A DNA stretch of 64,000 bases from a virus. Lineage: Duplodnaviria > Heunggongvirae > Uroviricota > Caudoviricetes. The DNA is taken from IMG/VR virus record IMGVR_UViG_2671180747_000017; one strand, written 5' to 3'. Each line of letters starts with the position of its first letter. Positions within the stretch are counted from its first letter, which is position 1. Position numbers: made by a program. Shown here piece by piece: positions 60,001 to 63,000 of the stretch.

Positions 60001-63000
60001 TGGCGTTGATCCTGCTTACGGCATTTATTCCATTTTTTCAGTAACAACAGCGATAGCCACCGCCCGGCGCAGAACATAATGTAAAAATAACCAAGAAGCG
60101 CCAGACCTGTGTTGAGGGCCGTATCGATCGTTATAGTGGTGTCTATGCTCACTTCACACCTCTCTGTTTGTTGATAAGTTCAATATCCTGCTGGCAACTG
60201 GCGCAAGTTCGGCATCCGCGAACAGCCTGGCGTCGCCGCTCATCTATCGGATCGCCACACTCGCAACAATGAGTAGCAGATGGGGCATTACTTTCGGATT
60301 TGTATTTTTGCAGGGAGAGATTGCGCTGCAATTCTTCGATTTCAGCGGCATTGTCGATGATATCTGCCATTTTCCTTTCCTTCAGGCATGAAAAAAGGAG
60401 CCGAAGCTCCTTTGGTATCAGAATTCAAATTGTCTTGCTCTTAGTTGCGCTAGCATACTTCTGGCCCTATGCACCATATAGTTGGCGGGATCAAGTTTTG
60501 CTGCTTCGCGGAGCAATGTGTCGCGAGTCCGGTTGGTTATATGACGAGTCTCGTAGGCCAGATCAAACAGTTTCCCGTAGTAATCAGAATTCAGTTCTCT
60601 CATGACGGGGTATAGCTGCTTACTGAGTTGTTGTGCTTTTTCCATCCAGAGTTGAACGTAGCAGAGCAGGATGATGTCTTCTGCTGTGAATTGCTGCTCA
60701 GTTTGTACTGGCTGAATGTTGCGAAGTTTCTTTTCGCACTCGATGAAGTATCGGCGTATCTGGCGGCCTTTTTCGTTACGTTCAACCATCGCAAGCTCTT
60801 TGGCTGTGTCGAGGGTGAGGTGGTAATCCTTGCGGCGGCGGCCTGGAGTTTTCGCCAAATTTGGCGAAAATAGAATGTAGTCTAAATTTTCTACGAATCC
60901 ATACTCGTTTAGCTTGGCCCGTATCCAGTTAGAAAAATCTTTACCTACCTCTAAAAATCCATGCAAATCACGCGCGTTCACCAGAAGCGTAGGTTCATTT
61001 GAGATTGTACCTTCAAACACAGGGATGAGTTGAGTGGTCATGATGACCTCCTTTGGCTTTTTTCGAGAAATGCCACCACAAAATGTGGTGCCGGGAGGCT
61101 CGAAACGGCCCAAAAGATACCGCGGACTTATTCCCCTTGCGGGTGTTGTATTCGTCGCCCTCCCGACATTGATCGGGGATGTGACCGCACACTGTGCTAT
61201 CACTGAATAACAGGCATAAAAAATCCAACACTGACGGGGTTGGTTTAATCCGCTTTTGGGAGGTTTTCGAGGCCTCGGCGCGGAGTATAGTCAGTATTGG
61301 ACGCAGTCGTCAACCATCGCCGTTTCTTTGGCTGTGTCGAGGGTGAGGTGGTAATCCTTGCGGTTGTGACCGCCTCTACCAGATGTTTGCTTTCCCAAAT
61401 TGGAAAGCAAAATATAGTCTTGATTTTCAATGAATTCGTATTCTGAAATGCGATTTGTAATCCATGCCGCAAACACCTTTTTCACGCCTAAAAAAGCATG
61501 CAGATCGCGGGCATTGCAGAGTAGGGCTGTTTCGTTGTCGATAGTGCCGTTGAATACGGGGATGAGTTGATTAGCCATAATTATGACTCCTGACGTTTTA
61601 GTATTGACTGCCACCTTAGTGGGGTGGCGGGCTTCAACTACCGCGTCAGACGGCGGAGCGTATTTCCCGAAAGGGTATTGTATTAGGCTCTCTCGACCCG
61701 CCATTGATATGGCGATACCTGTAAACAGGCATAAAAAAGCCGCAAAGCTATCGGGTGCGGTTGACCGCTGACGTTGTAGTGCAGTCAGTATGCGATAGCT
61801 CTGGCAGATTTGTCAAATCGTGCAGTAACATCCTTTTCTTCCTTGCCATTTCTCAATGATGACAAAGGGTGGATTCGGATTGGTATTGGGACAAAAGTGA
61901 GACACACAAAGCTTTGCATCGGCTTACAAAGCTTTGCATGTTTTTCAATGTTGGGACGTGTGAGCGCAGAAATGACGGGCTATCTAATTGATTTTAAACG
62001 ATACGTAACCAACTTTAAAATCTTTGCACGCCAGTTCGCAGGTTTTACAGCCAGTACAGCGGCTGGAATCGATAAAAAATCCATATTGTGTGGTCATGGG
62101 CTACTCCTTAAACCTTTTCGATCTGGACAAGATTGCTGTGCGACGGGTTTCCCTTTGCCAGCGGTGAAGGGCGGTGAGAGGTCAGAATATTGATACTGCC
62201 GCCGTGATCGACCCGGTCACCAAACATATCCGCTTTAAGCCACGCACCTTGCCCGATGGCGGTAACGCCAGGCAGAATACGCGGAGTCACTTTTGCGGCA
62301 ATCAGCATTTCTCCATTATTGTTAAATACCCGCACGGTATCGCCATGACGGATACCGCGTGCCTGAGCATCAATGGGGTTGATCCACACCTCTTGTGGGC
62401 AGGCCTGCTGTAACACATCAATATTGCCGTAGCTGGAGTGGGTACGCGCTTTGTAGTGGAAGCCCGTTAACTGCAGTGGATAGGTTTTCCGCAGGGGATC
62501 GTCCCAGCCATCAAAACCTGGGGTATACGCAGGAAGGGGATGAATAATTTCATCTTTTTTCAATTCCCAGGTATCTGCAATCTTCGCCAGTCGTTCAGAA
62601 TAAATTTCGATTTTCCCCGAAGGTGTTTTCAACGGGTTTGCCTGTGGATCTTCACGGAATGCGCGGAAAGCGACGTAGTGTTCTTCCGGGCATTTTTTCT
62701 TAAAGATCCCGGTCGTTTTCATCTCCTCGTAGTCGGGCATCTCAGGGTTACGTTCCTTCGTTTTCGCATGGAGATATTTGATCCATTCATGCTGACTGCG
62801 ACCTTCAGTAAAGGTTTGATAAACGTCTGGTCCTAAGCGTTTGGCGACTTCACTCAGCATCCAGTAGATGGGTTTGCGTTCAAATTTTGCTGAGGTTGCG
62901 GGTTGGGCGAGGATCACATAGCCCATATTCCCTGCAGATTCATGAGAGATAAGGTCTTCTTGCTCTGTTGGCATCAGGTCGGGCAACAGGATATCGCAAT

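Follow-up and report, generated by a model that had tools for sequence, protein, structure and literature searches.

Organization of the right end of the prophage

The 64,000-nucleotide (nt) sequence IMGVR_UViG_2671180747_000017 (referred to here as the window, meaning the whole stretch analyzed) contains a short-tailed, lambdoid Shiga toxin 1a (Stx1a) prophage, the right end of which carries two adjacent modules, M5 and M4, each consisting of an RNA leader and an antirepressor (ant)-type gene. The two modules make up the final 1.6 kb before the junction with ynfG, and their genes lie on the minus strand, pointing away from the junction. The insertion lies within ynfG, which encodes a 4Fe-4S protein and whose first 37 codons are found at 62097-61984, adjoining ynfF. 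Over 60300-62000, the right end shares 99.9% identity with Shigella phage POCJ13 (Sepvirinae) and matches prophages of several clinical E. coli genomes at 100%, whereas the immunity region of the prophage differs from that of POCJ13.

The first open reading frame (ORF) from the junction, that of M5 (the truncated copy, "AntA"; 61291-61578, minus strand), encodes 95 amino acids (aa) with a complete AntA domain and without the P22_AR_C domain. The ORF of M4 (the intact "AntB"; 60418-61041, minus strand) encodes 207 aa, with an AntA domain at the N terminus and P22_AR_C at the C terminus, and is followed by an intrinsic terminator at 60391-60413 (AAAGGAGC-TTCG-GCTCCTTT plus a T-run) that was found by reading and was not listed by the scan tool. 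An earlier note on this DNA had described a promoter/small RNA (sRNA)/terminator unit recurring twice here on the minus strand, ahead of an intact AntA-type gene and a 95-aa remnant, and had counted five such modules in the prophage. The intact and truncated ORFs are as described, and a 210-aa parent of the truncated one was found. The count of five holds for the architecture, with modules M2 to M5 carrying an sRNA-Xcc1 element and an upstream unit, and M1 (14378-14963) having the same layout built from other RNA families (isrK, c4-a1b1, and C4). The common order is a promoter, a short terminated RNA (U), a C4-like RNA (C), a ribosome-binding site (RBS), and an ant-type ORF.

Promoters and upstream units

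A scan of 60300-62000 for sigma-70-like consensus sites returned exactly two, both on the minus strand and both at the starts of the units given in the earlier note; as two is no more than expected from shuffled sequence (mean, 2.2), the position of these sites is informative and their number is not. The M5 promoter (61787-61816, minus strand) has a -35 hexamer TTGACA (61816-61811), an 18-nt spacer, and a -10 hexamer CATACT (61792-61787). The M4 promoter (61284-61313, minus strand) overlaps the 3' end of the M5 ORF and has a -35 hexamer TTGACG (61313-61308), an 18-nt spacer, and a -10 hexamer TATACT (61289-61284). Each promoter is followed by approximately 50 to 60 nt ending in a hairpin and a T-run. 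In U5 (61728-61797, minus strand), two short segments designated b1 (61781-61776) and a1 (61774-61765) precede a weak hairpin terminator with a T-run to 61733, the last base of the 3' end (...GCGGCTTTTTT). In U4 (61213-61282, minus strand), a 5' hairpin presents b1 (61271-61264), and a1 (61260-61253) is followed by a CCAAC/GUUGG terminator with a T-run to 61218, the last base of the 3' end (...GTTGGATTTTTT).

The U units of M2 to M5 match no Rfam family. A covariance model, R1, was trained on 41 upstream units from IMG/VR modules that had been gathered by a conserved core pattern, each without an exact match of at least 28 nt to the units of the window. In the training alignment, 80.8% of cells were paired in two stems, versus 68.6% in shuffles; the stem covariation score was reached by 0 of 500 shuffles, and slid controls scored far lower. 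R1 matched the 64-kb window exactly four times, at the U units of M2 (14992-15060, plus strand; E = 6e-12), M4 (61282-61213, minus strand; 54.9 bits, E = 3e-10), M5 (61797-61728, minus strand; 42 bits, E = 2e-7), and M3 (15931-16000, plus strand; E = 8e-7), and the next match had an E value of 0.59. Being recovered by a model that is independent of the window, U4 and U5 genuinely belong to a recurrent RNA family and do not resemble it by chance. The twofold occurrence of the unit at the right end, with promoters starting at 61816 and 61313, and the relatedness of the units, both put forward in the earlier note, are borne out by these matches, and relatedness also by the leader scaffold that M2 and M4 have in common (described below).

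The CI operator motif derived from OR (ATAAC-N4-GTTAT) is present in the window only at OL and OR, with two further sites, at 57151 and at 58238, that have one mismatch. As the motif lies near none of the module promoters, their control by CI was rejected. This absence is consistent with constitutive transcription and posttranscriptional control. Inspection by eye only found no LexA box (CTG-N10-CAG) at the promoters. The idea that an a1-GCGG pairing with the terminator could make the unit an antiterminator was also tried; it fits M3, M5, and many viral units but fails for the CCAAC/GUUGG class and is an idea only. Between the M5 promoter and the ynfG junction, at 61902-61941 (minus strand), lie two adjacent copies of ATGCAAAGCTTTGT with a palindromic core CAAAGCTTTG, which may be integrase/Xis arm sites or an operator of the M5 promoter.

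A C4-like RNA between the terminator and the start codon

Rfam models place a full-length sRNA-Xcc1 element (RF02221; gathering score, 53 bits) between the terminator and the start codon in each of M2 to M5. The element of M4 (61082-61167, minus strand) scores 74.5 bits (E = 1e-11) and has a 3' tail of ACCAC; a conserved hairpin at 61168-61217 (minus strand) separates it from the terminator. That of M5 (61618-61702, minus strand) scores 53.0 bits. Two stretches of the C unit are exposed, one (a') forming part of the second hairpin loop and the other (b') located in the junction that connects this hairpin with the closing stem; they lie at 61116-61109 and 61105-61099 in M4 and at 61652-61644 and 61641-61634 in M5. 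The models for C4 (RF01695), c4-a1b1 (RF03163), and isrK (RF01394) gave no match within 60950-61950, even at E values up to 10. M1, by comparison, matches C4 at 71 bits and isrK at 55.9 bits, with a c4-a1b1 match below threshold (25 bits) that overlaps isrK.

The closing stem of the C unit is followed by RCC(A/C), which resembles a tRNA acceptor end and is the sole hint of a predicted release by RNase P and action in trans. Downstream, the RBS region of M4 (61039-61081, minus strand) contains a small hairpin, a segment b2 (61067-61060), and a segment a2 over the Shine-Dalgarno sequence (SD) at 61056-61047 (CCAAAGGAGG), with the ATG at 61041. The RBS region of M5 (61576-61617, minus strand) contains a weak b2 (61607-61599) and a2 over the SD at 61596-61587 (ACGUCAGGAG), with the ATG at 61578. 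Reading of the sequence of M2 to M5 revealed no SD-bearing ORF between the C unit and the start codon of the ant-type gene.

The promoter, hairpin, and T-run that the earlier note had called an sRNA are thus a recurrent RNA unit, as it said, but only the upstream half of the leader, the C4-like RNA downstream having been overlooked. The U unit is most likely a target mimic or decoy carrying a1 and b1, like IsrK/c4-a1b1, and the actual antisense repressor is most likely the downstream C4-like RNA. Several papers regard sRNA-Xcc1 as an sRNA that is linked to virulence and acts in trans on targets yet to be identified, and nowhere in the literature searched is it tied to antisense gating of the c4/IsrK type. 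A high-GC subgroup of sRNA-Xcc1 core matches (IMG/VR loci L003, L008, L022, L075, and similar ones) has neither the terminated unit upstream nor an ant-type ORF and may represent an integron/symE context, as in Xanthomonas.

Three-way antisense complementarity and its covariation

In M2 to M5, the pairings of a' with a2 and of b' with b2 extend over 6 to 8 bp (b being weaker in M5), and a2 overlaps the SD. The same complementarity is found upstream. In M4, b' (UUUCGAG) pairs with CUCGAAA both in U4 (61271-61264) and upstream of the SD (61067-61060), and a' (CUUUUGGG) pairs with CCCAAAAG in U4 (61260-61253) and with CCAAAGGA over the SD (61056-61047). In M5, a' (CUGACG) pairs with CGUCAG in U5 (61774-61765) and over the SD (61596-61587). 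M2 (UUCUGAA with UCAGAA; CUUUAG with CUAAAG) and M3 (GUGUUCA with UGAACAC; CUUUCGA with UCGAAAG) have the arrangement of M4. The sequence of a' and b' is different in each of the five modules.

Two comparisons show these sites changing together. The leaders of M2 and M4 share a 147-nt scaffold, which includes the spacer hairpin of M4 and is 95% identical, and yet they show coordinated differences at b1, a1, a', b', b2, and a2. In TL-2011c, the M5/M4 pair recurs with an identical M4, but the M5 orthologue has jointly changed a1, a', and a2 (ACGUCAG/CUGACG to CUUCAAAG/CUUUGAAG), and its b1 and b' are altered by a compensatory C-G swap.

To assess generality, 80 distinct IMG/VR modules sharing this arrangement were compared. 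In 89% of them, the reverse complement of some 6-mer from the 3' half of C was present both in the U unit and in the RBS region of the same module, versus 16% for noncognate combinations, and for 7-mers the corresponding figures were 59% and 2%, a contrast that is no formal or calibrated probability, the sample having been picked by the conserved core pattern and its members being related. The matching k-mers form two position clusters, corresponding to a' and b', and the b' sequence is common to many of the modules. Antisense matching exceeded same-sense matching (Wilcoxon p = 3e-9 for U and 2e-13 for the RBS region). The M2/M4 comparison, the TL-2011c orthologue, and the 80 viral modules together indicate, at the level of sequence, that the pairing of C with U and with the RBS region is under selection. 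The predicted long-range U:C duplexes are also strong (-27 to -39 kcal/mol), and within M2 to M5 the cognate C is the best partner in each U column.

A proposed RNA-gated expression cassette

The elements, their order, their complementarity, and their covariation are observed here, and they point to each module being, probably, an expression cassette of the immI type, in which an RNA gates the synthesis of an antirepressor-class protein. In the proposed mechanism, a sigma-70-type promoter without a nearby CI operator would fire, and a weak intrinsic terminator would stop most transcripts to give the short RNA U carrying b1 and a1. Transcripts that read through would reach the C4-like RNA C, of approximately 85 nt, which would expose a' and b', complementary to the a2 and b2 sites 10 to 40 nt downstream of C. 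With a2 overlapping the SD, C would block translation of the ant-type ORF, either in cis or, once processed, in trans. The b1 and a1 segments of U, being copies of the targets, would allow U to sequester C, in cis on the read-through RNA or as a free decoy, and so release translation. The different a' and b' sequences could make the five modules largely separate channels. M5 would retain a complete RNA gate for a protein with the AntA domain only, and its transcription would also feed into M4. By analogy with P1 c4 and Gifsy-1 IsrK, it is proposed that C is processed and can act in trans, that U serves as a decoy, and that the proteins are antirepressors; the same analogy underlies the suggested sign and dynamics of the switch, in which U may be a decoy-activator or a termination helper.

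Several observations weigh against this model. The b determinants of M5 are weak (4 to 5 bp, GUAGU with ACUAC), and the C unit of M5 scores exactly at the gathering threshold with two closing pairs mismatched. Single-sequence folds of the U units are no more stable than those of shuffled sequence (z of about 0), and minimum free energy folds of the full leaders are mixed, with an SD accessibility of 0.4 to 0.5 in M4 and M5 and of 0.09 in M2. The 5-by-5 RNAduplex matrix is only partly diagonal, U1 being sticky; the RBS regions of M2 and M3 are bound best by a C other than their own, and the C:RBS energies do not discriminate cleanly. The relatedness of the 80 modules counts on the same side. 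A clean orthogonality of the five modules, which had been considered, was not upheld by RNAduplex, as the matrices are partly diagonal.

The upstream units could instead be plain attenuators or insulators against read-through from pR, or from pL via int and attP, with only the C4-like RNA having a regulatory role. Each unit does end in a hairpin and T-run directly ahead of the next element, the modules are located within or downstream of N-antiterminated operons, and the U folds are of ordinary stability. A terminator, however, needs no RBS-like sites complementary to a' and b', and yet such sites are present and covary in the window, in the orthologue, and across the 80 modules; the analogous IsrK, moreover, works in trans (PMC4825925). 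We consider this alternative very unlikely.

Encoded proteins

The AntA domain (PF08346; cutoff, 27 bits) scores 92.2 bits in M4 and 86.5 bits in M5, and the P22_AR_C domain of M4 scores 32.3 bits against a cutoff of 22.4. By BLASTP, the C-terminal domain of M4 is 36% identical to residues 215 to 272 of P22 Ant (E = 2e-10). M2, M3, and M4 have P22_AR_C in common behind differing N-terminal domains (ORF6N, Bro-N, and AntA, respectively), whereas M1 and M5 have an N-terminal domain only. Among viral contigs, 41 of 48 ORFs behind Xcc1-type leaders carried a Bro-N (9), KilA-N (8), Rha (7), AntA (6), ORF6N (6), or P22_AR_N (5) domain. On this domain evidence, antirepressor activity of the M4 protein is plausible.

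The only experimentally tested Stx-phage relative is the ant gene of phi24B, which shares 78% identity with the full-length parent of M1. Its deletion lowers the pR'-driven signal to 27 to 56% of the wild-type level, and its expression in lysogens is weak (PMC3064807). The absence of CI operators near the module promoters is in keeping with that weak expression. In the phi24B genome (HM208303), ant is preceded at 450-647 (plus strand) by matches to isrK (71.8 bits), c4-a1b1 (50.6 bits), and C4 (75.1 bits), all above the Rfam thresholds. These leader elements are unannotated in the HM208303 record and are not mentioned in the passages of Fogg et al. that were consulted.

A different reading of the proteins is that the cassettes hold toxic or regulatory DNA-binding genes repressed by RNA in the style of a type I toxin-antitoxin system. 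The leader would then be a silencer of harmful genes in general, with C holding a KilA-N/Bro-N/AntA/ORF6N-class protein off in the lysogen, and the payoff would be host killing, exclusion, or prophage stabilization and not the inactivation of CI. The N-terminal domains are of DNA-binding families that have been shuffled between phage regulators, and induction of IsrK arrests growth (PMC4825925). The sRNA-Xcc1 family is also found upstream of the symE toxin gene in Xanthomonas integron cassettes, which counts against the immI-type model as well; the leader alone is thus no proof of an anti-immunity role. On the other hand, the C-terminal domain of P22 Ant is common to M2 to M4, deletion of the related phi24B ant reduces induction of the late promoter (PMC3064807), and P1 Ant and Gifsy AnrP, located behind similar leaders, are described as antirepressors (PMC12197685, PMC8546580). 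A toxin-like role therefore appears quite unlikely, and the immI-type cassette is retained as the preferred model.

Two more antirepressor-class genes occur in the window, a P22_AR_N-type gene in the lysis cassette, at the position of the phi24B d_ant gene (25359-25925, plus strand), and a KilA-N gene (26730-27227, plus strand). By Rfam, neither has a C4 or Xcc1 leader. Together with M1 to M5, they bring the ant-like genes of the prophage to seven, controlled in at least two ways. The microRNA control described for d_ant by 24B_1 (PMC4426718) was set aside, as it concerns the other ant gene, in the lysis cassette, and not M1 to M5.

The truncated copies M5 and M1

The M5 ORF ends 2 to 6 codons past the AntA domain, inside the M4 promoter, and the M1 ORF ends two codons before the -35 hexamer of M2. 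Over 91 aa, M5 is 65% identical to M4. The pairing of a truncated with an intact gene in AntA/AntB has itself already been described. The earlier note had called the 95-aa ORF a remnant; it is truncated, but it is more than debris, with a whole AntA domain and an intact leader whose parts are mutually complementary and covary in the orthologue.

It may still be asked whether M5 and M1 are dead products of recombination, with only M4, M2, and M3 at work and with conservation due to hitchhiking on successful Stx phages. Full-length parents are known for both: a 210-aa protein that joins the M5 N-terminal domain to the C-terminal part of M4 and a 227-aa parent of M1. The truncations end exactly at the -35 of the next module, and some copies are labeled pseudogenes by the Prokaryotic Genome Annotation Pipeline. 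The ratio of nonsynonymous to synonymous substitution rates against TL-2011c is only about 0.5, a value that does not tell function apart from recent recombination involving intact genes, and the b sites of M5 are weak. Set against this, the truncated ORFs are open and contain whole domains, and the exact 95-aa form of M5 is found on 712 contigs while the 210-aa form is found on 75. The promoter, U, C, and a2 of M5 are intact, and the AntA/AntB pair moves as a unit into different phage contexts. The joint change of a1, a', and a2 in the M5 orthologue points to selection on the RNA gate after, or despite, the truncation. That its RNA parts are intact and covary argues for continuing selection on the M5 leader, and the view of M5 and M1 as dead remnants is somewhat unlikely.

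A broader reading would have the whole sRNA-Xcc1 class act as a c4-type "RNA immunity," with five separate channels in this prophage and with M5 and M1 kept as RNA-only or N-domain-only regulators whose decoy and antisense RNAs would set the threshold of the intact neighbor and engage in cross talk with matching cassettes of other prophages. This extension of the cassette model is tentative and, as it stands, doubtful.

Module shuffling and distribution

The number and place of the modules vary in close relatives. At its ynfG end, O22:H8 strain 154 carries three U units along with three ORFs, and phage TL-2011c has the M5/M4 pair in its early left region, M4 there carrying another C-terminal domain. 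This variation fits ongoing shuffling, in line with the active diversification suggested in the earlier note. What is demonstrably diversified is RNA specificity and the N-terminal domains. The further suggestion of the note, that the diversification may be directed at repressors of co-resident prophages, is not supported by these findings. The junctions lie at shared sequence, namely a 54-nt repeat in the AntA domain, the 147-nt leader scaffold, and a 315-nt repeat, so that ordinary homologous recombination is enough to account for the gain and loss of modules and for domain swaps. The last of these is an inverted repeat, 97% complementary between 16503-16817 and 60391-60705, that comprises the P22_AR_C coding sequence and the terminator of M3 and M4. 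Through this repeat, the intervening 43.6 kb, which holds Q, stx, lysis, and virion genes, could become inverted.

These observations also bear on the suggestion that the structured elements are DNA recombination sites, the ant genes being mobile cassettes as in integrons and the repeats marking cassette boundaries. The first description of sRNA-Xcc1 was indeed in integron cassettes, and relatives do differ in the number and position of modules. The junctions, however, fall at ordinary homology (the 54-, 315-, and 147-nt repeats) and not at the structured element, no cassette integrase is encoded near the modules, and the three-way covariation includes the SD region, which is meaningful only in RNA. 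Recombination sites are hardly credible as the explanation.

M5-like leaders were found in 375 of 5,426 RefSeq genomes and M4-like leaders in 160 of 5,426; they are unannotated in the matching genome records. The "3 places" per genome are most likely modules of this same prophage with a common P22_AR_C region, and the M5 leader is present once in that record.

The left-hand modules and other features of the window

The remaining modules form a tandem array on the plus strand. M1 (14378-14963) consists of a promoter (14378-14407), an isrK/c4-a1b1 unit (14414-14487), a C4 RNA (14513-14596), an RBS region, and a truncated ORF of 104 aa with ORF6N only (14649-14963). M2 (14960-15891) has a promoter at 14960-14988, its U unit at 14992-15060, an sRNA-Xcc1 element at 15106-15189 (75.7 bits), and an ORF encoding ORF6N and P22_AR_C at 15229-15891. 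In M3 (15900-16817), the promoter (15900-15929) and U unit (15931-16000) are followed by sRNA-Xcc1 (16015-16104; 67.5 bits), an ORF encoding Bro-N and P22_AR_C (16146-16790), and a terminator (16795-16817).

The C4 element of M1 is overlapped by a 36-codon ORF (14513-14628, plus strand) with two in-frame AUGs, which resembles "orf45" of Gifsy-1; unlike orf45, it stops 20 nt before the start codon of the ant-type gene and does not overlap it. Directly upstream of the M1 promoter and divergent from it is a gene pair for a HigB/RelE-type toxin and a HigA antitoxin (13731-14314, minus strand). Elsewhere in the window, STnc100 gives a strong Rfam match (195 bits) at 21288-21501 (plus strand), just 3' of stxB1 (20940-21209) and upstream of an esterase gene, and thus represents an sRNA-like element within the toxin/late region. 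A tail fiber gene contains collagen-like Gly-X-Y coding repeats (37962-39194, plus strand; a 63-nt family in 7 copies).

Implications for toxin phage induction

Release of Shiga toxin depends on prophage induction, and antirepressors provide a route to induction without RecA-mediated cleavage of CI. If the gating proposed here is correct, each cassette would be a small, easily mutated RNA switch that decides whether an antirepressor-class protein is made and could help to time the induction of toxin phages. The model gives sRNA-Xcc1 a concrete, testable function linked to the P1 c4 and Salmonella IsrK paradigms, and hundreds of complete E. coli genomes carry such leaders without annotation. 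Were the cross talk reading also true, polylysogens of Shiga toxin-producing E. coli would contain an RNA-level network that tunes the RecA-independent induction of Stx phages. While the principle is known, what is new is a variant of the c4/IsrK cassette without a leader ORF, its multiplicity in a toxin phage, and a functional reading for an orphan Rfam family.

Comparison with known systems

In P1 and P7, the c4 RNA is reportedly cut from the leader and, through its a' and b' segments, pairs with a2 and b2 at the ribosome site to silence ant, copies of these targets (a1 and b1) being located upstream, as Citron and Schuster are said to have shown in 1990 and 1992. Repression of ant by c4 RNA in these phages is also reported elsewhere (PMC12197685; PMC8546580). 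The modules share with the P1/P7 immI operon (c4-icd-ant1/2) an antisense RNA in the leader with two exposed determinants, RBS targets downstream with copies upstream, and a regulated gene for an antirepressor (here antirepressor-class by sequence). As in P1/P7 heteroimmunity, specificity shifts by a few coordinated bases, here between M2 and M4 and between M5 and its TL-2011c orthologue. The differences are that M4 and M5 match neither the C4 nor the c4-a1b1 model of Rfam, that M2 to M5 lack an icd-like leader ORF and have a2 over the SD of the ant-type gene itself, that the upstream unit ends in its own terminator, and that one lambdoid Stx phage carries several cassettes rather than a single immI locus.

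The immI region of P22 likewise encodes an antirepressor with the same C-terminal domain that is controlled by an antisense RNA at the start of translation. There, sar is transcribed from the opposite strand across the RBS of ant, and the Arc and Mnt proteins act at the promoter, whereas the antisense RNA described here lies upstream on the same strand, with no arc or mnt genes. The AntA/AntB pair of 933W (PF08346) has the same arrangement of a truncated AntA upstream of an intact AntB and is approximately 62 to 65% identical in the N-terminal region, and phi24B ant has a P22 Ant C-terminal domain and promotes induction (PMC3064807). Both were described at the protein level, and in the records examined the RNA leader and its specificity sites are unannotated. 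With sRNA-Xcc1 of the Xanthomonas integron (RF02221), the C units of M2 to M5 match the full model at or above the gathering threshold. The context differs, in that an ant-type gene with cognate sites on both sides of the RNA points to a c4-like local repressor.

A parallel in layout is also offered by the isrK-orf45 (STnc1160)-anrP region of Gifsy-1 (Salmonella), with a promoter, a short terminated sRNA of the Hfq type, read-through into a structured RNA of about 80 nt, and an antirepressor gene. In Gifsy-1, some IsrK transcripts pass the terminator, and the orf45 region gives rise by processing to STnc1160, of approximately 80 nt. The pairing of IsrK is with the 3' portion of orf45, which corresponds to the position of C4; when provided in trans, IsrK increases the translation of anrP by a factor of more than 100 (PMC4825925). 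In the published model, this element is not presented as a c4-type antisense RNA. The upstream units of M2 to M5 are not recognized by the isrK model, and these modules have no translated equivalent of orf45 and no translational coupling, whereas M1 and the leader of phi24B ant are true members of the Gifsy-1 type.

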